Made by a program: the position numbers and the translations under genes
Shown: positions 1-15,277 of the stretch, in pieces
Numbering within the stretch: the first letter of the stretch is position 1
Layout: each line of letters begins with the position of its first letter
Assembly (NCBI GenBank): GCA_963664815.2
Contig: CAXXHB010000003.1
Coordinates: forward strand, 3,200,001 to 3,264,000
Reading direction: 5' to 3'
Length of the DNA stretch: 64,000 nt
Source of the DNA: Spirochaetota bacterium
GTDB taxonomy: Bacteria > Spirochaetota > UBA4802 > UBA5550
Notes under the pieces: generated by a model
Databases searched by the model: none
What the model was told of the DNA's origin: nothing
Seen by the model: the letters and a program-made list of their open reading frames with translations, nothing else

Positions 1-536
1 CCATTATCATCCTTTTTATATATTGATTTACCATTTGTATCTCTTTCACGCTCTTGTAATATTTGATCAATATTTGTCGTAGCTGAATAGTCTGTATATA
101 TCGTGTTAAATTTAAATTCAGATGCTTTTGAATAAAAAAATATTATTTGATGAGAATTTAAAAGTCCTTTTTTAGAATTAGACCATCTTTTATAAGACCA
201 AACTATTTCACTTTGAAAATTTTCAGTTTGAAAAACTTCATCTAATAAAATTCTTATATAATGTGATGCAGTTTTATCACAATGCAAAAAAACCGAACCA
301 GTATTTTTAAGTATTCGATTACATTGGATCAATACTTCTTTAATTAAAAATGTATATTCATCAATTGAATCAAATTTATCATCAAATTCGTATATCTTTG
401 AATTATCACGATTTGCTAAAGAATGCTTTTTCTGAGTAAAAAATGGTGGATCAAAATAGATTAAATCAATTGACTCAGAATTTATTTCTAATAATTTTTC
501 TAAGCAGTTACCATGAATAATTTTATTTGTTTCCAT
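1..536 (-). CDS. Site-specific DNA amino-methyltransferase (N6A/N4C family), 3' end runs off window
   Basis: Manual translation from ATG 536: METNKIIHGNCLEKLLEINSESIDLIYFDPPFFTQK...ILKNTGSVFLHCD...EIVWSYKRW; DPPF catalytic motif; overlaps the stop of the adjacent endonuclease. Confidence 0.85.
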   Translation of the reverse strand, partial: METNKIIHGNCLEKLLEINSESIDLIYFDPPFFTQKKHSLANRDNSKIYEFDDKFDSIDEYTFLIKEVLIQCNRILKNTGSVFLHCDKTASHYIRILLDEVFQTENFQSEIVWSYKRWSNSKKGLLNSHQIIFFYSKASEFKFNTIYTDYSATTNIDQILQERERDTNGKSIYKKDDN

Positions 537-1161
537 TATCGGGAGTCCTTTCATTAGCTATTTCTATTAAAATCTTTTTAAGATCAATACCTGTGTATTT
601 ATATACATAATTCCAAGCCTCGTCACCAACATAATATTCTCCATTCACCGCCGAGTAAAGTGTCTTAAGAGTTTCCTGGATTTTAATAGCTTGAGCTCTT
701 TGGGGATAATAAAACATAACCCGTATCGGCTTATAACCCTGATTTTGTATAACTTTTACCCTCGTGTGTTCTTTTGTAATATGATCTCCATCAGTTGTCG
801 CATCTCGCCATTTTATTTCTATTGCATCATTACCATTTAAAAAGTCAATTTCAAATGTTTTTGGTCTTTGACCAATTGTATTGTTAATCTTTGTCTTTAT
901 ACCATCAGGAAATTTATAATTAAAACATAGTGTAGCTGCTTCCCCTAAAAATGAACCAGCATATTTATATAAAAATCGACCGGTATTTTGATAAACATCA
1001 ATCAGTTTGCCTTCTTTTGATGTTATTCCAAGAACTCTATATATTAAATAATATGAATTATCATCATTATTCATCTCTTTTTTTCGTTGTTTAATTTTTT
1101 TATTGAGCTCAGATGCGTATTTTTCAGCTAATTTAATAATTTTGTTTTTTAATTCGTCCAT
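523..1161 (-). CDS. ApaLI-like type II restriction endonuclease
   Basis: LIYRVLGI...YQNTGRFLYKYAGSFL...EID...EIKWRDATTDGDH resembles the RE_ApaLI family; translationally coupled to a methyltransferase. Confidence 0.75.
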   Translation of the reverse strand: MDELKNKIIKLAEKYASELNKKIKQRKKEMNNDDNSYYLIYRVLGITSKEGKLIDVYQNTGRFLYKYAGSFLGEAATLCFNYKFPDGIKTKINNTIGQRPKTFEIDFLNGNDAIEIKWRDATTDGDHITKEHTRVKVIQNQGYKPIRVMFYYPQRAQAIKIQETLKTLYSAVNGEYYVGDEAWNYVYKYTGIDLKKILIEIANERTPDNGNK

Positions 1162-1280
1162 ATATTTCTTCCAAATAAATATTTCTTAGCCCGGCACAGA
1201 AGCCGAGCTTCTTTAAAAGGGCATGGGGGTTGTATTTTTTCAATTATTTTTCTTCAAAAACAAAAAGATTGGCTTCCCAA

Positions 1281-1460
1281 GTCTGGTAGGTCGGGGAGTT
1301 TGCACCCCCTTTCCCCCATAAGAACCGTACGTGAAAGTTTTACCACAGGCACTTCCTCCGGTCGCCCTTCATACGGCTCAAGCAGTCTTAAGCTCTCTAT
1401 TCAACCAGCCGCTGTTATCTGTTTTTATTCCCATTTTTCTATAGTAGAAATAATCAGAAT
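1281..1460 (-). mobile_element. Group II intron 3' remnant (end of IEP, domain V, domain VI), copy 1
   Basis: Minus strand GAGCCGTATGAAGG...CTTTCACGTACGGTTC (DV, 1379-1322), then DVI ending ...GACCTACCAGAC; closely matches 8805-8983. Confidence 0.85.
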
Positions 1461-1623
1461 AAAAGTATCCCTTCATGGTCTTTTTATAGTTCCATAATCA
1501 TAGTATTAATATATAGATAATAATCTACAACTGCTCTGGTTATCCGGTAATGACTGATACTTCAGCGGTTCAGGAATCTCTTTCACTACAAGCCTTCCGG
1601 TTTTACATGCAGTGCAGCATGAA
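1448..1623 (-). mobile_element. Degenerate IS91-family transposase 3' fragment (element B, copy 1)
   Basis: Similar to 6284-6460; remnant of the CCxACKTGRL zinc-ribbon tail. Confidence 0.6.
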
Positions 1624-1731
1624 ACGCGACAGCTTTTTACATCAGCTATGGTAAGGCATTATACATGTCACGGGTAAAAGTTATTGCACATCCTGTATGA
1701 AGAGTTTCATACGGCCTGGCAGGAGTCAGTA

Positions 1732-2595
1732 TTATTCTTTCGCCCCTGCTTTTTTAAGTATATCAACAATTTCAGAATAACCTTTCTCTTTCGCTATCTC
1801 TGATGCAGAATAACCCATGGCATTGTCTTTAGCATTGACGTCTGCACCTTTACTGATCAGCAGTTTTACAGCTTCAATATCTCCTGATTCTGCAGCATTA
1901 AACAGGGCGGTAAATCCATCCCTGTCTCTGGAGTTAACATTGGCTCCCCTGCTAATTAGCAGTTTAACTATTGTTATATTTACAGGATTGAACAGTCCTG
2001 ATGTGACATACATCAGGACTGTCTTGCCTTCATTATCTTTAGCATTGACATCTGCACCTTTATCCATCAGGATTTTAAAGATTTCAGTATTATCATTTTT
2101 TGAAGCGGCATACATCAGGGGATTGCATCCGTGGTCATCTTTTGCATTAACATCTGCTCCCTTGCTGACCAGGAGTTTTATAATTTCAGTGTTCCGGTAT
2201 ATTACCGAATATATTAAAGGTGTTTTACCTGAAATAGTTTTAGCATTTACATTCGCTTCATGGTTGATGAGGAGCGCGGCTATTTCTGTATTTTCTTTTT
2301 CTATAGCTACTATCAGGGGTGAGTAGCCTGAAGCTGTTTCGGGATTAATACCGGCGCCGTTACTTATAAGCAGCCTGACAATTTCTGTATTTTCTTTTTT
2401 TACAGCGAACATTACAGGTGTCCATCCGCCATCAGCTTTGTAATTGACATCCGCGCCTGCCGAGATTGTTGCCCTGACATCTTCCAGATTCCCGCTTTCT
2501 ACTGCATCAAGCAGTTTCCGATTCAGATCGTTGTTCTTCGCATATATTGCGTTTGCGGCCAGGCATATAAGAGTGATAATAAAAAAATTTTTCAT
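1732..2595 (-). CDS. Secreted ankyrin-repeat protein
   Basis: Signal peptide plus multiple G.TPL..A.....EIV.LLI..GADVNAKD repeats; GGAGG RBS. Confidence 0.9.
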   Translation of the reverse strand: MKNFFIITLICLAANAIYAKNNDLNRKLLDAVESGNLEDVRATISAGADVNYKADGGWTPVMFAVKKENTEIVRLLISNGAGINPETASGYSPLIVAIEKENTEIAALLINHEANVNAKTISGKTPLIYSVIYRNTEIIKLLVSKGADVNAKDDHGCNPLMYAASKNDNTEIFKILMDKGADVNAKDNEGKTVLMYVTSGLFNPVNITIVKLLISRGANVNSRDRDGFTALFNAAESGDIEAVKLLISKGADVNAKDNAMGYSASEIAKEKGYSEIVDILKKAGAKE

Positions 2596-2654
2596 AAACG
2601 GAGTCCTCCGTATATCATCGGGTACATAACGGGGTTTGTATTATAAATCCGGTA

Positions 2655-2790
2655 TTATTCATTCGGCATTTCATTCATTTCAAGTATTGTTTTCCAGTTT
2701 CTTGCTGTAGATATAGGGCTTAACTTTTTTTCTATATAAGTACCGATGAATTCGGACCTTACTGCTCCATCTTGATAATATATGCAGCCG
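2655..2790 (-). pseudogene. C-terminal fragment resembling DUF1697 family
   Basis: YIEKKLSPISTARNWKTILEM matches the T.RNW.T C-terminal motif; no plausible N-terminus. Confidence 0.45.
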
Positions 2791-2850
2791 ACAATCATAG
2801 TCCGGCTGCAAGCACTTCTTGTAACCTGTTTTATATATTTAACTGCATAG

Positions 2851-3404
2851 CTAAAAAGCCCTGATAGCCCTGACCCATCCATCATCACATTCGTTTATCA
2901 TAGCGCCGCTCTGAACTCCGGTACTAAAATACTGGCCTATCGCGTAATTGTAACCATCATCAGTCGAGCTCCAATAGAATTCTTCGCTAAGTCCTCCGAC
3001 TTTTGCTTTTTCAAATTTAAATACATTAAATTAAGTTCATCTTTCGATGGCAAAAACCAGTCATTTTTCCCACCTCCGCGATAATCGGCACATAGCCTTG
3101 CCGCTGAATTAACTGTGCCGCAGTTTTGTAATGCAGACCGGGTATTGCTTTTTCCTGTCCCTATTGCTGTTCCATTAGCGCCGGATTTAGCGTCACCGGA
3201 ACAACCCCATATTGTATGTTTACTCTGGTCTTCAGGTGCAGCTTCCAAATAACGCCATCCATCGGTATATTTACCCTTGTCATAAAATATCCAGCCGCCG
3301 GCGGAGCCTTTACTCCTGAGTTTATATACTTTTTCCCCTGCACAAATATCAGAATAAAAAAACAGCATCAACATTAAAGGTATAAACATCAAAAACCTTT
3401 TCAT
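2851..3404 (-). pseudogene. Frameshifted DUF1566/C-type-lectin-fold secreted protein, paralog of 7124..7696
   Basis: Starts MKRFLMF (ATG 3404, GGAG RBS); one base missing in an A-run near 3008-3012; the other frame continues VGGLSEEFYWSSTDDG...WVRAIRAF* ending at 2851. Confidence 0.75.
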
Positions 3405-3664
3405 AATACTCTCCGGATTCTTTATAATGAGAATATGAAACATTGAATTTAAAAAAATTTCAAGTTTTTTCTTTCTCATTCCAGCAAAAAAGAAAGTTAC
3501 AACATCCAACTCCTTTAGCAGTCATATTAACTTATATATCAAGTAAACTTCGATAAATCACAGAAAGTAAATACGAAACTCGCTGGAGTTAACGGGACAG
3601 ATTAGAACTTATCGGTAGATCGAATCAGTAATCTTCTTGATAAAAAGTATTCAATACGCCCTTT

Positions 3665-3800
3665 TTAAATTAAATCAAGGAACCTTCTGAACTTGATGTC
3701 CGAATCGCTGGTATGCTTCATCAACCAGTCATATAGGAAATCGAGCAACTCAAAGGAGACGACCAGCCCCCCTTCATCGAACTGGCTCTTCAGTTTCACC
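3665..3800 (-). pseudogene. Bacteriohemerythrin C-terminal fragment
   Basis: VKLKSQFDEGGLVVSFELLDFLYDWLMKHTSDSDIKFRRFL* (WL..H....D motif); cut off by the IS91-like remnant. Confidence 0.6.
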
Positions 3801-3804
3801 AAAA

Positions 3805-4082
3805 AGGACACATTCATTATATCCATGGCCTGACCGCTTACGGTTAGCTGTTATAATGAAGTTTAGCTGTACTGCACAGATTTTAAAAACTGTTTCATAG
3901 AGAGGATAAGTATGTCCGGAGCATTTGAGATTTTTCATAAAATCGCCATTCACAGTCTATCAGATAACTGTAAAAATAATTATTTTACTGGATTATTATT
4001 TCCCCTGGTAAAATCACCGGATTTTTACTGTATGTTATTTCAAAGATCGGGATAAAACGGTATTCAAATTCCTATATATACT
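3805..4082 (+). mobile_element. IS91-family element A 3' end with oriIS-like motif (copy 1)
   Basis: Near-identical to 9736-10007; GGTATTCAAATTCCTATA at 4059-4076 resembles the IS91/IS801/IS1294 oriIS terminus and is followed by GTTC at 4083. Confidence 0.75.
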
Positions 4083-4101
4083 GTTCGATCCCAGTGGTTT
4101 C

Positions 4102-4226
4102 GTCCAACAGAGTCTTAACATAGCTGCTGTCTGAAGATTGAAATTATCTGTTTAATGTTTTTATACTGCTAATAAATATTAGCGGTTTTTTTGAGGCAAC
4201 TACGTTAAGACTTCTATAAGTTAAAT
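4102..4226 (+). other. attC-like recombination site linked to IS91 element A
   Basis: GTCCAAC-ag-AGTCTTAAC...GTTAAGACT-tctataa-GTTAAAT inverted-repeat architecture; near-identical copy at 10027-10151. Confidence 0.7.
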
Positions 4227-4273
4227 GCTGTTGCCAAGGTTATAAAAAAGTAGAATCCTATATTGTTTATCAA

Positions 4274-4918
4274 TTATTTTCTATATTTTTTTAATAATTC
4301 ACTTTTCTTTTCAGTCGGTAAAACTTGTTTCGTAGGTATTTTAATTTCATTAAAAACGGTTTCTAGTTGTCCACCAGACTTAATTGTTTTCTGATATATC
4401 ATTTCAGTAGCGGATTTATTATTTTCAATAACATATACTATTTTTTCATAATCTTTAGAACTTGCTGCAGCAATTCCGCCTCCCGCTCCTCCTAATAAAA
4501 GAAGTGCATAATTAGTTTTTTCAGAACTCGAATCATAAAATGCAGTAATGTCACCTAAGTAAACTTTTTTACCACCACCATTATTTTCAAAGTTAATTCT
4601 TTTATCATTTTCAAAAAAAAACAATTTTGAATTAAAACCATTTTTACAGGCAATACGTGATAAATAGTTTTTACCGATTTTACCTTTCCCAACAAAAAAA
4701 CCGTTTTCATCTATATTCATAAAAGATTTTTGACTGTTCTGCTCATCCATGAAGATAAGATTACAACTTCTTGTTACATCCTCACCATCTATGAAAATAT
4801 GAAAAGTACCATAAAAAACTCCAGTTCCATTTTCAATTTCTAGATCATTAAAATTTTTCGTAGTAGTAGCACAACCTGTTATTAAAATACTTAATAGCAT
4901 GGTAAAAATAATTTTCAT
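4274..4918 (-). CDS. Hypothetical lipoprotein (cassette-borne)
   Basis: Lipobox-like LITGC; bounded by complementary ends GTTAAATGCAATTGCCA / GTTAAATGCTGTTGCCA. Confidence 0.75.
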   Translation of the reverse strand: MKIIFTMLLSILITGCATTTKNFNDLEIENGTGVFYGTFHIFIDGEDVTRSCNLIFMDEQNSQKSFMNIDENGFFVGKGKIGKNYLSRIACKNGFNSKLFFFENDKRINFENNGGGKKVYLGDITAFYDSSSEKTNYALLLLGGAGGGIAAASSKDYEKIVYVIENNKSATEMIYQKTIKSGGQLETVFNEIKIPTKQVLPTEKKSELLKKYRK

Positions 4919-4980
4919 TTTTAATCTCCAAATGTTTAATTCTAATGTATATATTTTTCTAAAAAAAATATGGCAATTGC

Positions 4981-5180
4981 ATTTAACGGCCAGGCTAACT
5001 GACGTTGGCGATCAGCCAATGTGCTGACCTGAAAATCTACAAAACCCTGACACATCATATTCAAAAACACAACTCAAATGTCCAGGCTACAAACATGGAA
5101 GCCAAGCACGGATGCTATTCCGTTCCTTTGAAAATCAAAAAGTTCATTCAGCCGTGCGCCGCTGTTAGCCGGTGTTATCG
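4981..5180 (-). other. Long (~200 bp) attC-like site
   Basis: Minus strand CGATAAC-acc-GGCTAAC...GTTAGCC-tggcc-GTTAAAT; lies between two co-oriented ORFs. Confidence 0.75.
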
Positions 5181-5251
5181 GCTGTAGCAACAACCACTAA
5201 TATTTTATTTTGCCCTCGTTCACGGACGAATGAGGGCAGGTCACAGGTTAA

Positions 5252-5968
5252 TCATTCAATTAATTCAAAGCTTTTAAATAAATATTCTTTTGAATCTTTT
5301 TTGTAATACATTTTAAAATCAATCAGGCAACCTTTTACAATATCAAAATGTGAAGTTACATGCAATCCCAGTAAATTATAACCATCAATATATGCAATAT
5401 TTGAAGTTATACTTTTTAATGTATAATTGATTAATATTTTATCAGGTTTTCCTTCATTGTCATATTCAAAGATATTATTCCATGATTCACCTATAGAAAT
5501 CTCTTTCTCCGAGAAATAAATTGGGATGATAATAGGGTTACCGTTTGGGACATTTTTGCGTTTAAACCTAAATAAGTTGAAGCCAAAAATGCAATTACTA
5601 TATACATAGTCACTTTCATTTTTAATAAACTCACCAGATGGCTTGATACGATTTTCAATTTCACTGCCCACCGTATAAAAATATCCCGGATATGATAATG
5701 GATTACAGCATGACTTCTTATCAAAGATTGTAAGGGTGTATGATAACTTCAAAATATCATTATCATTTTCTTTTATAGATATTTTTACAATACTTAAATC
5801 AGAATAAATTCCTGTTAATTGTTTTACTAATGCATTTTCTGGAAATGACTGAAGTTGTATTTTATATTTCAAAACTTCATTAGGCTTGAAAACCAAGGTT
5901 ACTTTATCAGAAGTATATCCTTGTGAAACGATTGACATAGCGAATATTAGAGTAAGAATTTTTTTCAT
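5252..5968 (-). CDS. Hypothetical secreted protein (cassette-borne)
   Basis: Signal peptide MKKILTLIFAMSIVSQG; bounded by complementary GTTATCGGC ends at 6039 and 5174. Confidence 0.7.
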   Translation of the reverse strand: MKKILTLIFAMSIVSQGYTSDKVTLVFKPNEVLKYKIQLQSFPENALVKQLTGIYSDLSIVKISIKENDNDILKLSYTLTIFDKKSCCNPLSYPGYFYTVGSEIENRIKPSGEFIKNESDYVYSNCIFGFNLFRFKRKNVPNGNPIIIPIYFSEKEISIGESWNNIFEYDNEGKPDKILINYTLKSITSNIAYIDGYNLLGLHVTSHFDIVKGCLIDFKMYYKKDSKEYLFKSFELIE

Positions 5969-6032
5969 AAAATATATTTATCCTTATTTACTCGGCCACG
6001 GATGGCCGACCACAAAGTTTTGTTGCCATTGC

Positions 6033-6095
6033 CGATAACGTTAAGAAGAGTATCTTAATCAATCTTCTCCGATTGAGATACTCTTCAAGTTGGAC
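6033..6095 (-). other. Short (63 bp) attC-like site linked to IS91 element B
   Basis: Minus strand GTCCAAC-tt-GAAGAGTATCTCAATC...GATTAAGATACTCTTC-ttaac-GTTATCG. Confidence 0.7.
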
Positions 6096-6170
6096 AGAAC
6101 CGCCTGAGCAACAGCCCGATATAATATTAATGGATTTTAAATTACCGGATTTATAATTGCAAGAATAATT

Positions 6171-6555
6171 CGTATGTAGAAATTTGAATAAATAAACAAT
6201 TGCTTCTTTATAACAACCAATATATCTGCTTTTAAAATATACTGTTAAACGATACTTTCCGGAATAAATTATAAGTATTTCTTAATAATCAGAATAAAAG
6301 TATCCCTTCATGGTCTTCCTACAGCCACCACAATCATAATACATCAATATGCAGATAATAATATACAACCGCTCTGGTTCGCTGGAGGTGAACGATACCT
6401 CACCGGTTCAAGAATCTCTTTTACAATAAGCCTTCCGGTTTTGCATGCAGGGCAGCATGAAAGATTTTTACCTGTGACACGCAGATAGATTTCACTCCAT
6501 GTCTGCGGTATACTTTCATTCTTCTTTTGAATTTCGTAAAACTCGCGGCATGCCT
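6171..6555 (-). mobile_element. IS91-family element B 3' end (transposase tail plus oriIS-like motif), copy 2
   Basis: Encodes ACREFYEIQ...TGKNLSCCPACKTGRLIVKEILEPVRYRSPP (zinc ribbon and RxPP tail); TATTCAAATTTCTACATACG at 6190-6171 resembles oriIS. Confidence 0.7.
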
Positions 6556-6664
6556 CAACAGCCTACTTTTTGTTTCTGTGTGATAGAATTACAAAGTATC
6601 TGATGCGGACTCAAAGCTGGAGTTGTCAGCTTTAACTGATTTTTTACACAAAACCGGCAAAATT

Positions 6665-6875
6665 ATATCGGGATAGATCAATTTTATTTTTCCACGACCC
6701 AGTGAATCGTATATTCCAGTGTTCCCGGGATGATTTGCTTTGTAAAATCAACCGGAATCATTATACCCTGCTCACATGAATATTGTTTATACCGTGCCAT
6801 GGATGCCTCCAATGGCTTTATTCACAGCATAACTATTATGTAATTGCAATCAATTTATACTTTTTTTACAATCTC
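6665..6875 (-). mobile_element. IS1182-family transposase N-terminal remnant with left end
   Basis: ATG 6800 with GGAGG RBS: MARYKQYSCEQGIMIPVDFTKQIIPGTLEYTIHWVVENKIDLSRY; end GAGATTGTAAAAAA at 6875. Confidence 0.65.
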
Positions 6876-6905
6876 GTTATATGAAAGCGCTTAACAACGA
6901 CCAGT

Positions 6906-6933
6906 CGCAGCAATACACGGATGTATTGCTGCG
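6906..6933. repeat. Perfect 12-bp hairpin
   Basis: CGCAGCAATACA-CGGA-TGTATTGCTGCG. Confidence 0.6.
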
Positions 6934-7123
6934 TTCCGACGAAACAGATTATATCTCAGAACATGAGCAATCATATTTTAATATTTTGCAGTATCAGTAT
7001 AAGTCAATAAAATAATTGACATATGCTTATAAAGAGTAATTATTTGAATATTCGATGAAACGAGTAGAGGAGATTCATTCATTCTAAAATATTTATCTTA
7101 TATTAAAAAAGGAGACATATATT

Positions 7124-7696
7124 ATGAAGAAAAATGTTTCATCAGCAGTTTTAGTAATGGTTCTGTTAATGTTTGCAGGAACAGGAGTTTTATTTGTAAG
7201 CGAAAGTAACGCGAAGAGTAAGACATACAGAATAGGAGATAAAGGCCCTGCAGGAGGCTGGATATTTTATGATAAAGGGAATTCTTCTGATGGATGGCGG
7301 TATTTAGAAGCCGCACCAAATGATCAGAGCGCTGAATCAGCGTGGGGCTGTTATGAAAAATCAATTCCCGGTGCGCAAGGAACAGCTATTGGAACGGGAA
7401 AAACCAATACTGCAGTAATAATTGGAAGCTGCGATGAATCAGGAATAGCAGCTAAAGTCGCAGCTGATTATCGTGGCGGAGGAAAAAGCGACTGGTTTTT
7501 ACCATCTGATGATGAACTGAATCTGATGTATCATAATTTGCATATAAAAGGAATTGGCGGTTTCGCCGAAGGCGACTATTGGAGTTCGTCTGAGGGCCCT
7601 GCGGACGGCGCGGCGAAACAGAATTTCATCGCTGGCGGTCATGACTACTACAATAAGGTCATGACGTTAAGGGTTAGGGCTGTCCGGGCTTTTTAA
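7124..7696 (+). CDS. DUF1566/C-type-lectin-fold secreted protein (possible DGR target)
   Basis: GPAGGWIFYDKG...DWFLPS.DELNLMY...YWSSSE...VRAVRAF; N-terminal signal/TM segment; AGGAG RBS. Confidence 0.8.
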   Translation: MKKNVSSAVLVMVLLMFAGTGVLFVSESNAKSKTYRIGDKGPAGGWIFYDKGNSSDGWRYLEAAPNDQSAESAWGCYEKSIPGAQGTAIGTGKTNTAVIIGSCDESGIAAKVAADYRGGGKSDWFLPSDDELNLMYHNLHIKGIGGFAEGDYWSSSEGPADGAAKQNFIAGGHDYYNKVMTLRVRAVRAF

Positions 7697-7711
7697 CAAT
7701 TTTTCACAGGG

Positions 7712-7901
7712 CAACCGCTCTGGTTCGCCGGAGGTGAACGATACCTCACCGGTTCAGGATTCTCTTTCACTACAAGCCTTCCGGTTTTGCATGCAGGGCA
7801 GCATGAAAGATTTTTACCTGTGATACGCAGATAGATTTCACTCCATGTCTGCGGTATACTTTCATTCTTCTTTTGAATTTCGTAAAACTCGCGGCATGCC
7901 T
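7712..7901 (-). mobile_element. IS91-family element B transposase tail, copy 3
   Basis: Near-identical to 6366-6555 and broken at the same GCGGCATGCCT point. Confidence 0.7.
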
Positions 7902-8208
7902 ATCACCATTCTGAGGATAGAACCCTTATTTGATATACAAATTAAGCGGCAATTTTAAATCGGTGGTGACATCTATCATCGTGGACTGGAAAAGGTTAAC
8001 ACAATCTAGGCTCTTATCTGTATTGCTCATAATTTCCGGAAGCCCGCCCGGTTGGAATACGGATTATAATTAAATAAAGTAAAATATTCCCGAAGACACA
8101 CAATCTTCGGGATACATACAGGATTGTCAAAATAAAAGCAGAGGGTATTCAGCCGATATTATTTTAGAGTACTCAATTTTTTTAATAAGCTACTTTTGCG
8201 ACAGACTC
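7902..8208 (+). mobile_element. Degenerate IS1182-family transposase C-terminus and right end
   Basis: Remnant ..EPLF...RGLEKVNT..LICIAHNFRK; terminal TTTTGCGACAGACTC at 8194-8208. Confidence 0.6.
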
Positions 8209-8240
8209 GTTTGTTGTGTGCAGTATCGCGGTTTACACAT

Positions 8241-8777
8241 TCATTTATCAATTACAAATGTAACTTCTTGAAATGTTCCAGGCCGTGGTACAATTGGAGG
8301 AAATATACATCCAGGTATGCATGCAATTGTTTTTTTTATCGCTTTACTATCATCAAGTTTTAGTTTTATTGTTTCATCCTGTTTAATCTTCAAATGTAGC
8401 ATTCGAATTGAACCAATTCCAGGGTTTTGCGAAGTACCGTACGTATCAGCCTGTCCAGTTGCCGCATGTAGGATATATTCTATTTTTAAATCACCAACTG
8501 GTACTGGAAATTTATATTTAAAATCATCTTTTTTATAAATCTTTTTATCATTTTGATCAAAATAATGATTACCAAAAGTTCCATAAAAATATTCTTCATC
8601 ATTCACAATAAATTTACAAGACCAGTGATCAATATATTTATAATAATTGAAGTCTAATACTATATAACCATGCGCAGATAATAAAATTGAATTTTCTTTT
8701 TCTTTAATCTGTCGTGATGGTGTACACGATGTAATAAAAAATAGGATAAGTATAATTATTGATATATGTTTTTGCAT
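8241..8777 (-). CDS. Hypothetical lipoprotein (cassette-borne)
   Basis: Lipobox-like FITSC; AGGAG RBS; followed on the minus strand by R''-like GCACACAAC ending at 8213. Confidence 0.7.
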   Translation of the reverse strand: MQKHISIIILILFFITSCTPSRQIKEKENSILLSAHGYIVLDFNYYKYIDHWSCKFIVNDEEYFYGTFGNHYFDQNDKKIYKKDDFKYKFPVPVGDLKIEYILHAATGQADTYGTSQNPGIGSIRMLHLKIKQDETIKLKLDDSKAIKKTIACIPGCIFPPIVPRPGTFQEVTFVIDK

Positions 8778-8804
8778 TTACTAACTCCTAAAGTTTTAGC
8801 GATA

Positions 8805-9190
8805 GTCTGGCAGGTCGGGGAGTTTGCACCCACTTTCCCCCATAAGAACCGTACGTGAAAGTTTTACCACAGGCACTTCCTCCGGTCGCCCTTCATACGG
8901 CTCAAGCCGTCTAAAGCTGATTATACAACCAGCCGCTGTTATCTGTTTGTATTCCCATTTTTCTATAGTAGAAATAATCAGAATCTTCTTTTAAAAATGG
9001 GTTCCTGTCAAGACTTATCATTCTGTGTCGTACAATTTTAATGTGTCCCGCAGTAATGAGAATCTCCTCATCAGAGCAGAAAGTTTAAGTACTGGTTTTT
9101 AAGTCATAAAGAATTTTTCATCGGGTGTCTGAATCTGCCCCATATCCATAGAGCCTGAAAAAGAACAGTATCGAGTTTTAAAGGCTACCT
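8805..9190 (-). mobile_element. Group II intron 3' remnant (degraded maturase domain X, DV, DVI), copy 2
   Basis: Frameshifted LDTVLFQALWIWA.FRHPMKN...GHIKIVRHRMISLDRNPFLKEDSDYF; DV at 8903-8846; ends ...CCTGCCAGAC; no endonuclease domain. Confidence 0.85.
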
Positions 9191-9772
9191 TTGACATTCA
9201 TGAAAATGCTTTTATTCCACCTCGGCAAAGAACTTAAAAACGGTTCTTTAAAGACACCTGACGGCATTGAAAATATTGCAAAGCTTTTTAATCAGCTTGC
9301 GCATATTCCATGGGTTGTAAACTCCCAGCCTCCCGGCAAAGGTAAAAAGAAACCGGTAAACATAGTCCGCTATCTTTCGAGATACGTTGCTAAAAGTGCA
9401 GTCAGTGATAAACGGATACAGAAAGCGGAGAATGGAAATGTTTACATCCGCTATTACAATAGAAAAAGGAAGCAAAGTAAAATTGAGGTTGTTACAGAGA
9501 TTCAATTCATGAAACGTCTGGCACTGCATATTCTTCCTAAAGGATTTAAAAAAGTCCGGTTCTTCGGTTTTATGGCAAACCATAACAGGGCAAACAATCT
9601 TGCCCTTTGCCGGATGTTTCTTGGTCAGCCTCTGGCAGAACAGTATGAGCAGAGCAAAGAGCTTCCTGATGATACGGCTTTCCTGTTCTGGAAATATTTC
9701 AGGATTGATATAACTCTCTGCAGGGAGTGCGGAAGAGGACACATTCATTATATCCATGGCCTGTCGACTTAA
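9191..9772 (+). pseudogene. IS91-family (Y2) transposase, N-terminally truncated (element A, copy 2)
   Basis: PWVVNSQPP, YLSRY (YxxxY), HILPKGFKKVRFFGF and C-terminal CRECG; HUH and N-terminal zinc domain absent. Confidence 0.85.
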
Positions 9773-10007
9773 GGTTAGCTGTTATAAAGAGTATATCCGC
9801 ACAGATTTAAAAAACTGTTTCATAGAGAGGATAAGTATGCCCGGAGCTTTTGAGATTTTGCATAAAATCGCCATTCACAGTCTATCAGATAACTGTAGAA
9901 ATAATTATTTTACGGGATTATTATTTTTTCCGGTAAAATCACCGGATTTTTATTGTATGTTATTTCAAAGATCGGGAGAAAACGGTATTCAAATTCCTAT
10001 ATATACT
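9773..10007 (+). mobile_element. IS91 element A 3' non-coding end with oriIS-like motif
   Basis: GGTATTCAAATTCCTATA at 9984-10001, followed by GTTC at 10008. Confidence 0.75.
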
Positions 10008-10026
10008 GTTCGATCCCAGTGGTTTC

Positions 10027-10151
10027 GTCCAACAGAGTCTTAACATAGTTGTTGTCTGAAGATTAAAATTATCTGTTTAATGTTTTTATACCGCTAATAA
10101 AGATAAGCGGTTTTTTTGAGGCAACTACGTTAAGACTTCTATAAGTTGTGC
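10027..10151 (+). other. attC-like site linked to IS91 element A (copy 2)
   Basis: Same as 4102-4226 up to the G|TT, then diverges (GTTGTGC versus GTTAAAT). Confidence 0.7.
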
Positions 10152-10172
10152 GAAGAACACGAATTAATACTA

Positions 10173-11015
10173 TTAGTGTTCAATTAATAAAAAATTCATA
10201 ATTGGAAGTATTTCACCAAATAAATCACCATTTTCTAAAGTAAGAAATCTATTTTCTATATCCGTTGATTTTAAATGTTCAATTATTTTAAATTGATTTT
10301 CGAGAACAAATTTTTCTATTTCTCCCATCTTAATTCCGAATTTAATTACTTCATCTTTCAAACCTATATCTATAAGGTCTTCACCATTTAATATTGTTTG
10401 GAAATCAAAACCCAATTTACTTCCAGTCCCAGAATTCTGCCTTATTTTTTCCAGCATTGAAATTACAGTTTTGCCTGATAAATAAAACGTAACACCTTCA
10501 CATATAAACAAGGTTTCTTTGTGTGTATCATAGCCATATTTTTGAAGTAAAAACATGAAATTATCTGTTTCAAAATTAACAGAAACATATGAAATATTTC
10601 TATGAATGTTTATATTATTATTGTTTAAAACTTCAAGTTTATATTCCTGTGTTGGTTTTGAGTCCACTTCAAAAATCTTTGTATCTCTTATTGAATTACT
10701 AAATCTATATGACCGACTATCATAACCAGCTCCCAGAAAGACTATTTGATCGATATTATTTGTTAACTCATTTATGAATAATTCATCAAAATACTTTGTC
10801 CTTGATATCACATATTCATACAATCCTTTGGGTAAAACTTTTTTTAAACCTTCTCTTGAATCAATATAAGCAAGAATTTTTTTTTGATCATCTGTTAAAA
10901 ACAATTCGGCCAAAGTATCATTGGTTTTAATTTTTTCAATTTTTTCGTAATTTGAAAGAGCACGTAATGATAGTGTAGCAAATGCAGTTTCCGATTTTTT
11001 GTTATCAATACCCAT
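10173..11015 (-). CDS. SAM-dependent methyltransferase, leucine carboxyl methyltransferase-like
   Basis: SRTKYFD, QIVFLGAGYDSR, FEVD, EGVTFYL motifs; likely start MGIDNKK at 11015 (ORF track extends to 11066). Confidence 0.85.
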   Translation of the reverse strand: MGIDNKKSETAFATLSLRALSNYEKIEKIKTNDTLAELFLTDDQKKILAYIDSREGLKKVLPKGLYEYVISRTKYFDELFINELTNNIDQIVFLGAGYDSRSYRFSNSIRDTKIFEVDSKPTQEYKLEVLNNNNINIHRNISYVSVNFETDNFMFLLQKYGYDTHKETLFICEGVTFYLSGKTVISMLEKIRQNSGTGSKLGFDFQTILNGEDLIDIGLKDEVIKFGIKMGEIEKFVLENQFKIIEHLKSTDIENRFLTLENGDLFGEILPIMNFLLIEH

Positions 11016-11044
11016 AAAATGATCTCCTAGTTTTAAAGTGATTG

Positions 11045-11680
11045 TTAATTCTTCATTAAATCGCAAAAAAAACTTAAAGTTTTTATCATATACTTCACTG
11101 TTGATTCATTATCAATTAATCCATTTTGAGATATGAAATATTCTTGAGTGAGGGCAATAGAAACATAATTATATTGTTCGGCAAATAATTGTGCATCGAT
11201 AGGCTTAACCATTTTTCGTATAATCATTTTTTCGATTAGGTTTTTGTAGTAGTTTACTGGTTCGCTTACCATGTATTTATGATATGTTTCTGCTGCTAAT
11301 GAATTTCTAAATTTCTCATAATGTATAAACATTGCAACATCCTGAAGCATTTTGCTTATTTGACTGCCAACTTGAAAAACTATAAATTTGAATATTTCTT
11401 CAGGTAACATAATTTCTAGCATTCTATCAAGCTCTACATCAGAAGGTCTTGATTTATAAGTTTCTTCTGCAAAAAACTTGAATAAAGAATCCCTGATGTC
11501 TGCTTTATTCTTAAAATGATTATATAAAGAGCTCTCTTTTATATCTAGAAGACTAGCAATTTCCCTTAGAGAAACACTATCATATCCCTTATTTGCGAAT
11601 AAGTTTGCAGATACCTCAAGTATCTTATTTCGCGTATCTATCCCAGTTTTGCGCTTTTTTTTATTATTTTCTGATTGCAT
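11045..11680 (-). CDS. TetR/AcrR family transcriptional regulator
   Basis: N-terminal LFANKGYDSVSLREIA...SSLYNHFKNK HTH. Confidence 0.9.
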   Translation of the reverse strand: MQSENNKKKRKTGIDTRNKILEVSANLFANKGYDSVSLREIASLLDIKESSLYNHFKNKADIRDSLFKFFAEETYKSRPSDVELDRMLEIMLPEEIFKFIVFQVGSQISKMLQDVAMFIHYEKFRNSLAAETYHKYMVSEPVNYYKNLIEKMIIRKMVKPIDAQLFAEQYNYVSIALTQEYFISQNGLIDNESTVKYMIKTLSFFCDLMKN

Positions 11681-11813
11681 ATATCCATTAAACTATCAAA
11701 TGATAGTTTTATCAATAATTATACTAATAATTGATAGCTCAAAAGAATAAAAAAGATATTATTATGAAAGAAGAATGGTTTTAATATAGGAAAAAAATAA
11801 ATTTGTGCTTTTC

Positions 11814-11872
11814 GCATAACTGATTACTGTAAGCAATTCCTGATTATACATGAATTTTACAGCAAGTTGAGA
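11814..11872 (-). other. attC/attI-like site at the array boundary
   Basis: Minus strand TCTCAAC-ttg-CTGTAA-AATTC...GAATT-gc-TTACAG-taatca-GTTATGC; GTTATGCGAAAAGCAC mirrors the cassette's other end GTTGTGCGAAGAACAC (10145). Confidence 0.55.
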
Positions 11873-12126
11873 ATTGTCAGACGGGGCTATATGAATTTCA
11901 TTTTTATTCATTACTTAACTTACTCATCATTGCAACCGGCTATTAATACATATCAGGATTGTCTATATTTCAATACTTCTTTAGTATTCAAATAAATATT
12001 ATATATTTTATACAAAATCAGTAATCACGTTATTAAGCTGGCTGCCGTGCAATGAAGGAATATGAAAAAAATGTTACAAGCACAAATCATGCCGAAACTG
12101 CTGCATTTGGGCCTGGTTTATACCCC

Positions 12127-12181
12127 TTCTACCTCAATGTATCCGCTATCTGTTCGCCATGTATTCGCCATCTATCCGGCG
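12127..12181. repeat. Degenerate 11-bp tandem repeat
   Basis: TGTATCCGCTA TCTGTTCGCCA TGTATTCGCCA TCTATCCGGCG. Confidence 0.55.
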
Positions 12182-12320
12182 AACTAACTTCAGAATTTTT
12201 TTTGCTTTTCCCGGAAATTTTTTAAATTCTTCTGTTTCAGACGTATTAATGTTATGTAAGGATGCCGGGGGGAGCATTATAACGCGCTATCGATAATCCA
12301 CATCAGTCCCATTACCGCTC

Positions 12321-12717
12321 CTCCCGGTTTCCTTAACTACACCGCTCCCCGGGTGTTTTTAAGTGAAACGAGAAATGTCCCGAGGGGATCACTACCGGAA
12401 AACTGTTTTCTTAAAACATATTAATAATATCAATCTTTGAACACGATTACAGGATTTAAGGATTAACGGGATTTTCTGCAGAGTGAACAGACATCAGGAC
12501 AGGTGCTCCCTGCATATCTCTTTGATACTGTTCGTAATGAAATATTATCAATATGCCCGTGTCAGCTATGAAACCGCATCTTCAAGTTTCTTAAACCACA
12601 CCGTTCCCCGAGTGTTTTTAGTGAAACTGGAAATGTATCGAGGGGATCACTACAGGATCTCCCGGTTTCCTTAACCTCACCGCTCCCCGGGTATTTTTTA
12701 AGTAAAACCGTAAATGC
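12321..12717. repeat. Three copies of a ~78-bp repeat (12321-12399, ~12581-12657, 12659-12717 partial)
   Basis: Core CCTTAAC..CACCGCTCCCCGGGTGTTTTTAAGTGAAAC..GAAATGT..CGAGGGGATCACTAC.GGA. Confidence 0.75.
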
Positions 12718-12721
12718 TTTA

Positions 12722-12760
12722 TCCTCCCCTCGCCATTTAGAGAGGGCCGGGGGTGAGGTC
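12722..12760. repeat. REP-like GC-rich palindromic element
   Basis: TCCTCCCCTCGCC...GAGAGGGCCGGGGGTGAGG resembles widespread CCCTCTCC...GGAGAGGG..GGGGTGAGG intergenic repeats. Confidence 0.45.
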
Positions 12761-12889
12761 TGCATCGTGCATCATCTGGTTCAGATTCAAATTCACTGCA
12801 GATTTATGACAAAATTCCGACTCTGTTTACAGAGTATTCAGTTTCGCCTACATTTCGCTTCAATTACGCCTCAAACACGCTACTGACAG

Positions 12890-13429
12890 TTAAAAACGCG
12901 CGTTTTTCTCTGTCAGTAACGGAGTTGAAACGGTATTGAAACGGTTTTTAACAGGGTCTACATACTGCTTAAGTCCTGTTTTAACAGCTTCACCTCTGTC
13001 TTTTGCTGCATTAATATTATTCTCCCCATCTGCTGATCTGCTGTTTTCTGAACAGTAACAGGTATATTCTGCAACTTCTCCGGAAGCAGATACAACCACC
13101 GCATCCCCTGTTCCGCCGTTTCCCGATGGAGTAACAGGTGAACCGGGTGCAATGCCGCGAAGGTATTCAGACATAAAAAGGTTATACCCTGACTTTCTCT
13201 TCCTCTTTGCCCTGTTTCTGTAGAGAGCCTTCTCCTCTTCCGGAAGAACCTGCCAGGCCTTAACACCGCCGCCGAAATTACCCCTGCACTTCACCTGCGG
13301 TTCAGTTCGCGGATTAGCAGGAATTGTACGTGCTTTAATGTAGATTTTACCATAGCGTCTGTAAAACACAAGATCGCCCATACCTCCATGCGCAGTTCTT
13401 AAATAAGGATGAAGCTTTACTTTTGCCAT
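12890..13429 (-). CDS. Hypothetical basic protein (G.LVFY...NPRT..Q...R type), possibly DNA-binding
   Basis: AGGAG RBS; basic ~90-aa N-terminal domain and low-complexity tail. Confidence 0.7.
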   Translation of the reverse strand: MAKVKLHPYLRTAHGGMGDLVFYRRYGKIYIKARTIPANPRTEPQVKCRGNFGGGVKAWQVLPEEEKALYRNRAKRKRKSGYNLFMSEYLRGIAPGSPVTPSGNGGTGDAVVVSASGEVAEYTCYCSENSRSADGENNINAAKDRGEAVKTGLKQYVDPVKNRFNTVSTPLLTEKNARF

Positions 13430-13707
13430 AGATATACACTCCTTTATTGCTGTTATATTTTATCGTTATTTATATAGAAACTTATGTCTCTAATAACCAG
13501 TGCGGAAAAGCAAATGACATGGGGCAAGCATAATTTTTAAAAAAGTTACCAGATTGGATTACGGACATGTTGCTTTGCCACCTCCGGGGGTGCGGGGGCT
13601 GAGCGGTTACGGCTGCTGAATGTATATTTTACAAGCAATGTGTACTCAATGAGTAATGGCTATACACCCACTTTAACAAAGCTGGTGTATAAAATAATTC
13701 GCTGCAC

Positions 13708-14961: not shown

Positions 14962-15277
14962 GATATAACTCTTTACGCCCGTTTGTATGATTAAACACAT
15001 TAATTGCAACATTAAAAAAGCTTTATATTAAGGGGGGACAGCCATATTAAAAGCTCTTTCTTTTCTTTAAAATCTGCAGGTACACCTATGTTAACAGTCA
15101 GATGTATTAATGTAGTTACCCGGCGGAAAAATAATATACAACTATAATATAGTTGAAAATAATGTAACAGATTATTATTAGTGTCAACAAATGGTTTTTC
15201 ATATTTCTGCATAATCTTCAGGGTTTTGCAGCATAGTATTGAATATGACAATCAATATCTCAAAAAGGACTTAAAAA

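Follow-up and report, generated by a model that had tools for sequence, protein, structure and literature searches.

Relic IS91-family ends between gene cassettes are probably remnants of elements that lodge at attC cut points

How do IS91-type transposase tails, each followed by a hairpin that opens GTCCAAC, come to join gene cassettes directly at G|TT? The question is raised by a 64,000-nucleotide stretch of a Spirochaetota bacterium contig (CAXXHB010000003.1, positions 3,200,001 to 3,264,000), hereafter the window. A preliminary description had reported three junctions with one layout, and this observation held. A1 (3802-4220, plus strand) and A2 (9191-10145, plus strand) were about 92% alike over 421 nt as far as G|TT and diverged beyond it (repeat families D2 at 95% and D8 at 90%). 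A1 retains the final transposase codons and a tail with an ori-like motif (TATTCAAATTCCTATATATAC, 4061-4081), followed by GTTC (4083-4086) and by a right inverted repeat with an R''-like box (4090-4108), whose GTCCAAC (4102-4108) opens the hairpin (4102-4220). This hairpin closes at G 4220 ahead of TTAAAT, setting the cut point at 4220|4221. The same parts of A2 lie at 9986-10006 (motif), 10008-10011 (GTTC), 10015-10033 (inverted repeat and box), 10027-10033 (GTCCAAC), and 10027-10145 (hairpin), which closes at G 10145 ahead of TTGTGC (cut point 10145|10146). Repeats and boxes were read from the sequence, and hairpins from sequence and fold. Upstream in A2, an open reading frame (9191-9772) codes for a C-terminal stretch of a Y2 transposase (PF04986, 1.7e-25; positions 52-180 of 183 in the profile). 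B1 (6039-6652, minus strand) has an A-like layout with a different hairpin: a tail carrying ATTCAAATTTCTACATACGA at 6190→6171, an inverted repeat at about 6113→6089, GTCCAAC at 6095→6089, and a 57-nt hairpin (6095→6039) that ends in G 6039 before TTATCG. The stretch at 6190-6171 had been proposed as the oriIS-like motif of B. This assignment is replaced here, because the subterminal motif conserved family-wide (..AATYCC(C)ATAG..) is represented in B by AAAATCCATTAATA, which precedes the inverted repeat by about 25 nt. The GTTC that follows the A motif is likewise unconserved: type-2 A copies have none at this position.

All five copies in the window (A1, A2, B1-B3) are dead fragments. In none of them is the left end or the recombinase gene left, and the transposase gene is always truncated. 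B1, a B-type 3' relic, was 93% alike to the intact copy at C3:3695084-3695602, and its transposase C-terminus has decayed (protein match to residues 317-418 with 5 stops). B2 (7705..7905, minus strand) is only a piece of a B-type transposase gene (D4 at 96%; residues 348-414 matched, 2 stops), and B3 (1449..1640, minus strand; D3, D5, D10) is a fragment of the transposase C-terminus (residues 375-418 matched). A2 is 5'-truncated, and its transposase gene is fused to a group II intron 3' fragment (8805..9190, minus strand; RF00029, 43 bits at 8805-8905). This composite of intron fragment and A2 (8804-10145) was found at 4 loci. A second group II intron 3' fragment (1281-1460; RF00029, 50.8 bits at 1281-1381) adjoins B3, and the Rfam search returned group II intron matches only.

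The relics persist between the cassettes of an array without an integrase. The A1 hairpin meets, at AA|C, the downstream end of a minus-strand cassette (4221..4986, open reading frame 4274-4918) with 8-nt inverted ends, TTAAATGC at 4986→4979 and GCATTTAA at 4228→4221, an exact inverted partner as checked by script. A direct reading of the next cassette (4987..6038, minus strand, open reading frame 5252-5968) gave its own attC at 5182→4987. This cassette opens TTATCGGC directly after the final G of the B1 hairpin, and the opening pairs with GCCGATAA|C at 5182→5174. The A2 hairpin meets the downstream end, CGCACAA|C, of a minus-strand cassette (10146..11825) with TetR-family (PF00440) and leucine carboxyl methyltransferase-family (PF04072) genes. 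The junction sequences thus agree with the earlier statement that A meets the downstream (R'') cassette end and B the upstream (R') end, and the A ends adjoin the AA|C of the cassettes in inverted orientation. Exact 8-mer inverted cassette ends were found within 4 kb at 11 of 31 A junctions (control 3/31) and at 7 of 16 B junctions (control 0/16).

Genome-wide, the layout recurs more often than chance would give. A search with the 3' arm of hairpin A, allowing up to 4 mismatches in 23, gave 31 matches, of which 28 end in GTT. Their right flanks are of 30 kinds, one pair being a segmental duplicate. A fuzzy search with the hairpin B 3' arm gave 16 matches, and TT came next in 14. Likeness among the collected copies therefore stops at G|TT before different cassettes, and the hairpin travels with the insertion sequence, both as first suggested; the intact B element and its relatives likewise carry a hairpin behind the transposase gene. 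Ends that lack the hairpin or the fixed breakpoint, which the preliminary description had named as evidence against its view, occurred only as rare decay products (4 hairpin-less tail fragments, and the 3 of 31 ends that do not close in GTT). Folded with DNA parameters and compared with shuffles, A2 gave z -4.3, B z -4.0, and A1 only z -1.6. Apart from A1, the hairpins ranged from z -2.3 to -4.3 in this folding, and they have unpaired bases in the 3' arm, candidates for the extrahelical bases that set the polarity of attC sites.

Alternatively, the hairpins could be ordinary cassette attC sites, an IS91 element having inserted near a boundary and the segment having been duplicated later. Many copies are indeed segmental copies of a few rearranged ancestors, with shared fusions (4 to a group II intron fragment, 3-4 B'/A', and at least 5 intron/A-tail) and one A pair with identical flanks, and cassettes lying right of an A relic lack a further attC on the side facing it. 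However, the diversity of right flanks at the A ends speaks against this history, and the right inverted repeat accompanies the hairpin, the sole exception among 26 copies inspected being an internal deletion. Homologous transposase genes are followed by the same hairpin types in another MAG and in other genera, and Clostridium plasmids have ends with a hairpin at loci where no array is seen. The left end of the element also covaries with the hairpin box, and the other attC sites resident in these arrays do not resemble A or B. We regard this alternative as very improbable.

The genome holds one intact B element (L001, C3:3695082-3697539, minus strand). Genes for a tyrosine recombinase and an IS91 transposase are both present in it, along with the hairpin, so the intact copy that had been predicted to pair such a recombinase with the Y2 transposase does exist. 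The recombinase (287 aa, PF00589 and PF13495) matched TIGR02249 at 164.6 bits in two stretches, with profile positions 180-234 skipped, and NF040815 at 206 bits; its frame shows GLRVGE, HTLRHSFA, LGHRH, and LVYVH. The transposase (418 aa; NF033538, 429.5 bits against a cut-off of 125) has the HUH-like LHPHLH and YLARYTHR. Judged by its HUH/Y2 transposase (NF033538, PF04986) and by the missing target-site duplication, the element belongs to the IS91 family. Its hairpin reads GTCCAAC..CTTAACG|TTAGAC. The upstream flank is a complete resident attC (GCACAAC ... GGCG, folded); downstream, the next cassette opens TTAGACGAC, and the attC of that cassette opens GTCGTCTAA|C, a 9-nt perfect complement. 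The element sits precisely between G and TT of the resident attC, and its flanks (..GGCG | element | TTAGACGAC..) share no direct repeat, i.e., there is no target-site duplication.

The best explanation overall, to which we give a probability of roughly 0.7, is that the window junctions represent right ends, now decayed, from two lineages (A and B) within a single IS91-family subgroup that lodges at attC cut points. Its structural part, namely a hairpin borne by the insertion sequence, cassette-like ends, and an element located at attC cut points, is very likely correct. A complete element spans about 2.4-2.5 kb and begins with a left inverted repeat (TTGAAC-AAAACCGC) and a small stem-loop. 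The gene for an integron-integrase-like tyrosine recombinase, without the IntI-specific insertion, comes next, followed by the HUH/Y2 rolling-circle transposase gene, an AT-rich tail with the ..CC(C)ATAG.. motif, and the right inverted repeat (GCGGTTTC-GTYCAA). A hairpin of 55-125 nt lies outside the right repeat, its last base, G (sometimes C or A), preceding the host TT. B is found in the same orientation as the cassettes, between G and TT of the R' box, and A is found inverted, at AA|C of the R'' box, which on the other strand is the same place.

The two ends of these elements appear matched. The left end (TTGNAC...) was complementary at its variable base to the hairpin-opening box in 7 of 10 elements (A-T in four, T-A in two, and C-G in one), and 9 of 10 had left and right repeats that complement each other at 14-19 of 20 positions. 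Mean repeat complementarity was 15.2 for an element's own pair and 13.2 for cross-pairs. An A.C mismatch between GTCCAAC and TTGAAC in the A and B lineages weighs against this pairing. Because the left end complements the hairpin box, the predicted circle junction forms a single long hairpin that resembles attC; each of the 7 elements folded gave one hairpin in which the repeats pair (6-18 pairs, z -4.3 to -7.4). The junction boxes GTYCAAC (GTCCAAC or GTTCAAC) ... G|TTGAAC match the attC consensus RYYYAAC ... GTTRRRY, cut at G|TT. On the other side, neither a circle junction nor a clean empty site was seen; contigs of four public runs break at the repeats. In the mechanism we propose, the Y2 enzyme would copy the element out as a single-stranded circle, the circle junction would then fold like an attC, and the element's IntI-like recombinase would join the folded junction to a folded attC, as an integron integrase inserts a cassette. 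Rolling-circle copying could plausibly be coupled to integron-type recombination in this way, and we lean slightly toward an insertion step driven by the element's own recombinase.

Relatives in other genomes extended this picture. A contig of a Bacteroidetes MAG (L023) holds the same element, with a transposase 83% identical and the same hairpin. This contig opens acGTTGAACAAAACCGCC, and likeness stops at CTTAACG|TTA, beyond which a different open reading frame follows. An A-type homologue in another genome (L016 in G016) has a full 381-aa transposase, 66% identical, a homologous A hairpin, the left end tGTTGAACTAAACCAC, and a recombinase gene that is decayed but kept. A search across the phylum gave matches at E<=1e-40 in 20 of 401 genomes, and 18 tails were inspected by eye. 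Fifteen had the right repeat, an RYYCAAY box, a hairpin, and x|TT, with unrelated hairpin sequences; the remaining three comprised two contigs too short to judge and one without such an end. Two contigs (L012 and L013) terminate exactly at GTT, and two copies in G070 differ only past GAG|TTA. A recombinase frame of at least 214 aa lay upstream in 9 of 14 relatives examined. Four Clostridium estertheticum plasmid copies, in four contexts, kept the hairpin, here too of unrelated sequence, and the 6-kb stretches inspected contained no cassette array. The target of each copy is a palindrome, whose 3' arm has the element at its 5' edge, and none of the four has a target-site duplication; the only related Clostridium empty site, 92% alike, is ambiguous. 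At its end the element reads x|TT, where x is G, C, or A and the base after TT is A, G, or C. Before TT stands C in L027, L028, and L029 but either A or G in Clostridium; integron integrases, with their AAC/GTT rule, are stricter. The left flanks in four other genomes gave only small stem-loops or nothing clear, so attC targeting is shown here for one intact insertion and the relic junctions rather than as a general rule.

The right (ori) end of IS91 adjoins a GTTC/CTTG target, and canonical IS91 elements are not known to require a recombinase. In a rival reading, the Y2 transposase would act alone here, with hairpin and repeats as ori/ter signals, attC sites as the commonest folded hairpins beside xTT, and a convergent attC likeness; the recombinase would be accessory, e.g., for multimer resolution. 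Comparable recognition of single-stranded hairpins occurs in IS200/IS605 and Helitrons. The variable base before TT, reminiscent of the central TT in IS91 targets, fits such a process, as do the Clostridium targets, which are palindromes and not attC sites. The conserved ..CC(C)ATAG.. motif near the end is oriIS-like, a 28-nt block around it is duplicated at two loci, and right-end relics far outnumber left ends (31 + 16 against 3), as expected of one-ended rolling-circle copying from the ori end. However, the relatives have largely kept a recombinase frame that canonical IS91 would not need, even in decayed form in L016. The predicted circle junction also fits both attC boxes and, like attC, would be cut one base within the 3' arm, and known members of the recombinase subgroup act on folded attC sites (10.1101/542381). 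We consider transposition by the Y2 enzyme alone unlikely.

The preliminary description had further proposed that the IS91 ends act as cassette-capture platforms. In its working form, relic right ends would give neighboring genes a recombination site, with the recombinase of the intact copy acting in trans. Several observations are suggestive: an inverted A end is the only downstream hairpin of 30 different cassettes, copies with one shared dead internal structure differ in their neighbors on both sides, at least 5 cassettes lie between a B end and an inverted A end, and A-type relics occur in G006, G009, and G011, genomes without a strong transposase match. Nothing in the data shows capture, however, and the proposal was not upheld by the five dead copies of the window. 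Segmental duplicates aside, no cassette was seen in two places with its A or B hairpin, and the same pattern could arise by gene conversion or homologous exchange among the many relics that are 85-96% alike. Hairpin and right inverted repeat were never found apart, and a cut at the other box was accordingly not observed. Working platforms are distinctly doubtful. A simple insert-and-decay history nevertheless explains neither the excess of right ends nor the one dead composite that sits between different cassettes at 4 loci. If left-behind right ends did become recombination sites of their neighbors, they would offer a natural route to new attC sites and hence to new cassettes, whose origin is a long-standing open question. 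By linking insertion sequences to integrons, elements with an IntI-like recombinase and a self-made attC-like site might even be a living model of the IntI/attC ancestor, an idea we hold to be quite unlikely.

These elements, taken to be IS91-family members lodging at attC cut points, behave as cassette look-alikes. Integron cassettes and attC sites (class 1, Vibrio superintegron, and CALIN) share with them the G|TT boundaries, the position between two cassettes, and an R''-like GTYCAAC that complements the unit start TTGAAC; the stretch between the boxes also seems to fold, as in attC, into an imperfect hairpin that leaves some bases unpaired. The element differs in being 2.4 kb long with two mobility genes of its own, whereas a cassette usually holds one promoterless cargo gene, and its paired "R" stem measures 14-20 nt against 7 in attC. 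Its relatives may also have C or A before TT and live outside integrons. The mobilizing integrase of integrons, with its IntI-specific extra domain, was not found in this genome, where the best TIGR02249 match reached 220.7 bits against a cut-off of 265 and skipped positions 180-234; canonical IntI was present in 4 of 40 relatives. ISCR1 is likewise an IS91-like rolling-circle element tied to integrons, being physically linked to class 1 integrons beyond the 3' conserved segment, but it is not known to have a recombinase gene or an attC-like end, or to insert at attC cut points.

The system had been called undescribed, which proved true in part. Pairing of IS91 with an integron-like recombinase is already in print: a preprint by Smyshlyaev et al. 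(10.1101/542381) groups recombinases of IS91 elements with IntI in an "integron-like" subgroup without the IntI insertion. Public plasmid records annotated by PGAP also place a "site-specific tyrosine recombinase/integron integrase" beside an "IS91 family transposase". The intact B recombinase falls into this subgroup on sequence features, having a SAM-like N-terminal domain, a catalytic domain closest to IntI, and no IntI insertion. The annotated plasmid elements have the same two genes in the same order, and the insertion is missing from the B recombinase just as the preprint states for its subgroup. A terminal attC-like hairpin, cassette-like ends, and targeting of attC cut points by IS91 elements were not found described in the literature searched.

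To our knowledge, the two kinds of element known to home to attC are IS1111-attC insertion sequences and group IIC-attC introns. Both resemble the present elements in their site- and orientation-specific lodging in attC, but they use other enzymes (a DDE transposase, and a ribozyme with reverse transcriptase, respectively) and are not known to carry an attC-like site of their own. Introns in integrons are the subject of PMC7923331. Relics of group II introns are present in these same arrays.

The preliminary description of this DNA reported three junctions with a shared layout, in which the tail of an IS91-type transposase gene leads through an origin-like motif and a short spacer into a hairpin starting GTCCAAC and then, at G|TT, into a gene cassette. 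Reading of A1 (3802-4220) and A2 (9191-10145), both right-end relics of an A-type IS91 element on the plus strand, and of B1 (6039-6652), a B-type relic on the minus strand, showed this layout to be correct. A1 and A2 were 92% identical across 421 nt and had in common the motif TATTCAAATTCCTATATATAC, GTTC, a 15-nt spacer, GTCCAAC, and a 119-nt hairpin. They diverged at the cut point G|TT, between the hairpin's last G and the TT of the host cassette, with A1 continuing into TTAAAT and A2 into TTGTGC. B1 contained a related motif, GTCCAAC, and a distinct 57-nt hairpin ending G|TTATCG. Folding against shuffled sequences gave z values of -4.3 and -4.0 for the A2 and B hairpins, respectively, and A1 folded weakly (z -1.6).

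Every element copy in the window is a dead relic. Of its Y2 transposase, the A2 ORF (9191-9772) retains the C-terminal two thirds (PF04986, 1.7e-25), the match to the 183-position Pfam profile beginning at about position 50. Missing from A2 are the left end, the recombinase gene, and the start of the transposase gene; what remains is fused to a 3' fragment of a group II intron (RF00029). A1 is shortened more than A2, the B1 transposase remnant has five stops, and B2 (7705-7905) and B3 (1449-1640) are two more pieces of the B transposase gene. An Rfam scan of positions 1-16000 (E ≤ 0.1) returned no attC-like family, only group II intron matches; these 3' fragments were found at 1281-1460 and 8805-9190 on the minus, cassette-sense strand (RF00029, 50.8 and 43 bits, respectively). 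Genome-wide, group II intron 3' ends were present at 12 sites, with a different sequence after each, in which a ribosome-binding site and ATG frequently lay within 15-30 nt.

Independent evidence of several kinds places the hairpin in the IS and not in the cassette, as had been proposed. The 3' arm of hairpin A had 31 matches in the genome, 28 of them ending in GTT, and the 400-nt right flanks of these 31 A ends comprised 30 different sequences, the one repeated pair being a segmental duplicate. Among the 26 copies printed, all but one had at least 10-25 nt to the left of the hairpin (..CAGTGGTTTC) in its company, and the single exception was an internal deletion. Ends named beforehand as contrary to an IS-borne hairpin do occur, but as rare decay products: four tail fragments without the hairpin, a single internally deleted hairpin, and one box directly before AAAAG|TT. 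The last is an A-type end at C3:2534418 of the genome studied, where the box is followed at once by AAAAG|TTATGCG and no hairpin is present. An alternative reading, in which the IS proper would stop at ..GTYCAA and the hairpin would be what remains of a split target attC, was rejected because the left flanks never end in RYYYAA and because copies in different contexts share the hairpin.

An intact copy with a tyrosine recombinase gene beside the Y2 transposase gene, which the preliminary description had anticipated, exists as one intact B element on the minus strand at C3:3695082-3697539 (locus L001). Its recombinase gene encodes a tyrosine recombinase of 287 aa and its IS91 transposase gene a protein of 418 aa (NF033538, 429.5 bits) that contains HUH-like LHPHLH and YLARYTHR; the tail and the same 57-nt hairpin follow. 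A search of genome contigs with the B transposase returned one locus only. On a Bacteroidetes MAG contig (MWDJ01000123.1), which begins two bases before GTTGAACAAAACCGCC, an 83% identical relative of the B transposase was followed by the same hairpin as at L001; identity was lost at CTTAACG|TTA, after which a different ORF began. A full-length A-type transposase was found only in the related genome G016 (381 aa, 66% identical), with a homologue of hairpin A after it and a decayed recombinase gene and left end tGTTGAACTAAACCAC before it. A-type right-end relics with tail, repeat, hairpin, and G|TT were also seen at L059 (genome G006), L058 and L063 (G011), and L060 (G009), though no strong transposase match was found in these three genomes.

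In a phylum-wide sample, 20 of 401 genomes had a transposase relative at E ≤ 1e-40. Eighteen tails were read by eye, and 15 showed a ..CC(C)ATAG.. motif, a GCGGTTTC-like repeat, a RYYCAAY box, a hairpin, and x|TT; of the other three, two were on contigs stopping too early to judge and one had no such end. The hairpin sequences were unrelated between lineages. Two short contigs terminated exactly at GTT, and two copies in genome G070 differed only after GAG|TTA.

The left end of the complete element is TTGNAC-(A/T)AAACCGC with a small stem-loop. The reverse complement of this left end, GCGGTTTC-GTN'CAA, is located 2.4-2.5 kb rightward (2.0 kb in the deleted G016 copy), directly before the hairpin. 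This puts the hairpin beyond the right inverted repeat and the end of the element one base before a host TT. In nine of ten elements, left and right repeats were complementary at 14-19 of 20 positions; for the tenth, from Clostridium, the script's 12 of 20 came from a wrong window, and the right repeat was identified by eye as GCGGCATCGTTCAA. The core base covaried in 7/10 elements (TTGAAC/GTTCAA in four, TTGTAC/GTACAA in two, and TTGCAC/GTGCAA in one), with an A.C mismatch instead in the A and B lineages of the genome studied and in the MAG's B element. When the right and left ends were joined by script, the predicted circle junction formed a single long imperfect hairpin with the repeats paired in all seven elements (6-18 repeat pairs, z -4.3 to -7.4 vs shuffles). 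The attC box consensus is RYYYAAC/GTTRRRY, and the junction boxes GTYCAAC and G|TTGAAC satisfy it, a fit readable from the sequences.

Two further features of the ends were observed. A 28-nt block at the A origin-like motif, ATTCAA(A)TTCCTATATATACTGTTCGATC, was duplicated astride unrelated 34-37-nt inserts at C3:1367764-1367818 and C3:3686864-3686918. In about 10 copies, including C3:3587262-3587402, 2543593-2543710, 1964130-1964286, 1371487-1371618, and 3687908-3689465, the box at a B right end was interrupted at GTC|CAAC by a structured module of about 105-130 nt. This module was found only together with B ends, and at one locus its two parts were about 1.5 kb apart with two small ORFs between them. 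The 3' end of the module, ..ATAAAAAAGCCGG, stood directly before every solo B hairpin.

The window (C3:3200001-3264000) opens with 11.8 kb belonging to an integron-type gene-cassette array, with ORFs almost all on the minus strand and cassette boundaries provable internally from each cassette's own inverted ends. By sequence reading and script, the cassette with ORF 5252-5968 starts with TTATCGGC (6038->6031), and its own site starts with GCCGATAA|C (5182->5174); the cassette with ORF 4274-4918 starts with TTAAATGC (4986->4979) and ends with GCATTTAA|C (4228->4220). At L001, a complete, GC-rich resident attC (GCACAAC ... GGCG) lies upstream of the intact B element, and on the element's other side is a cassette that begins TTAGACGAC, nine bases perfectly complementary to the start of its own attC, GTCGTCTAA|C. 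The element thus occupies the exact G|TT cut point, like an inserted cassette, and its orientation is that of the cassette ORFs. Cassette starts of the same kind also come directly after B relic ends, both in the window and elsewhere. A relic ends are oppositely oriented and adjoin AA|C of cassette ends, which is the same position on the opposite strand. An exact 8-mer inverted partner within 4 kb was present at 11/31 A junctions and 7/16 B junctions, compared with 3/31 and 0/16, respectively, at control sites 20 kb away. At least five cassettes had a B end on one side and an inverted A end on the other.

Four element copies on Clostridium estertheticum plasmids (L043-L046) had four gene contexts, all with the hairpin, and no cassette array was seen around them in the 6-kb stretches viewed. 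Each interrupts a palindrome of one repeat family, AAATGTCGTGAAA..TTTCACGACATTT, with the flanks forming the inverted repeat AAATGTCGTGAAA-N6-7 | element | TTCMTTYCACGACATTT, so the element sits at the 5' edge of the palindrome's 3' arm, the same geometry without an integron. One copy was unlike the other three solely in the 3' arm of the hairpin. A related Clostridium site without the IS was only 92% alike, which leaves the exact target base ambiguous. When the 150 nt to the left of each of six full-length elements were folded, a clear attC was obtained for one alone, the copy in the genome studied; the left flank in four other genomes showed small stem-loops only, or nothing clear, and we therefore claim no universal attC rule from these data. 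A search of the genome for empty sites with the 31 right flanks returned only paralogues that have A remnants themselves (C2:298629) or that begin within the flank. Contigs from four public runs broke at the repeats of the intact B element; no circle junction and no bridged empty site appeared in them.

The architecture, the covarying ends, the junction fold, and the exact position in attC sites are observations. The finding itself is real; how the element moves, and any part that it has in forming cassettes, are proposals. IS91 moves by rolling-circle copying via single-stranded circles, and IntI recombines folded single-stranded attC sites. According to 10.1101/542381, IS91-linked recombinases are grouped with IntI and lack its insertion. 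We propose, with a probability of about 0.55, that the Y2 enzyme would release the element as a single-stranded circle, that the circle junction would fold like an attC, and that the element's recombinase would join this folded junction to a folded attC at x|TT. The main rival, which we regard as unlikely, is that the Y2 enzyme makes all cuts and the hairpin is its own end signal. In favor of this rival are the variation of the base before TT, the Clostridium targets, which are not attC sites, and the fact that right ends outnumber left ends.

A composite of an A end fused to the intron fragment was present at four loci with different neighbors on both sides (window 8804-10145; C3:1966556-1967935, 3197964-3199252, and 1367764-1368981), and two other composite forms behaved similarly. 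True left ends in the genome numbered three, including the intact copy. Such composites with changed neighbors, together with the scarcity of left ends, could reflect trans-action at G|TT, one-ended copying, or gene conversion, for which the relics, 85-96% alike, would be the substrate. The preliminary interpretation went beyond an IS-borne hairpin, which stands, to ends that capture cassettes and couple rolling-circle transposition to integron-type recombination; the changed neighbors of the dead composites are what bears on the idea of capture, and they hint at it faintly.

Integron cassette arrays are a major reservoir of adaptive and resistance genes, and to our knowledge only two kinds of element home to attC sites. 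A third, if true, would be a new route of array disruption, rearrangement, and possibly extension. Combining the closest known relative of the integron integrase, a rolling-circle enzyme that may supply the single strand, and its own attC-like site, it would also offer a simple system for how IntI-type recombinases came to use folded single strands. The pair of recombinase and IS91 transposase genes is known and routinely annotated, and the kinship of the recombinase with IntI is already published. Full-text literature searches, together with passages of PMC9345347, PMC7923331, and PMC11023631, gave no description of a hairpin outside the right repeat, of cassette-like ends, or of attC cut-point insertion of IS91 elements; ISfinder and TnPedia may describe such ends. 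In annotation, an 'attC' call in a Bacteroidota array may mark an IS end, and an 'integron integrase' call next to an IS91 transposase gene does not denote an integron.

The genome encodes no integron integrase, its best TIGR02249 match scoring 220.7 bits against a cut-off of 265 and skipping the IntI-specific profile positions 180-234. Canonical IntI genes were present in 4/40 related genomes; this is therefore an integrase-less cassette array in a lineage that has integrons. The top IntI-like score belonged to a stand-alone 357-aa recombinase (C3:1972136-1973212; L002:12136-13209, minus strand), which scored 235 bits with NF040815, exceeding its cut-off of 220. Its N terminus is extended by 85 aa, and the gene that follows encodes a ParA-like ATPase; no IS91 transposase gene adjoins that of the recombinase. 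A or B relics occurred in at least eight separate clusters, on C3 at about 1.10, 1.365-1.40, 1.964-1.968, 2.53-2.57, 3.19-3.21, 3.58-3.59, and 3.686-3.697 Mb and on C2 at about 0.298-0.311 Mb, which suggests many cassette arrays in one genome without an integron integrase. Cassette cargo in the window, all on the minus strand, included an ApaLI-like restriction endonuclease (523-1161; PF09499, 1.5e-92), an ankyrin-repeat protein (1732-2595), and a TetR-family regulator with a leucine carboxyl methyltransferase-family protein (10173-11680). Just past the array end, at 12310-12700, were the repeat families D7 and D9, with 51- and 43-nt units 73-86% alike.
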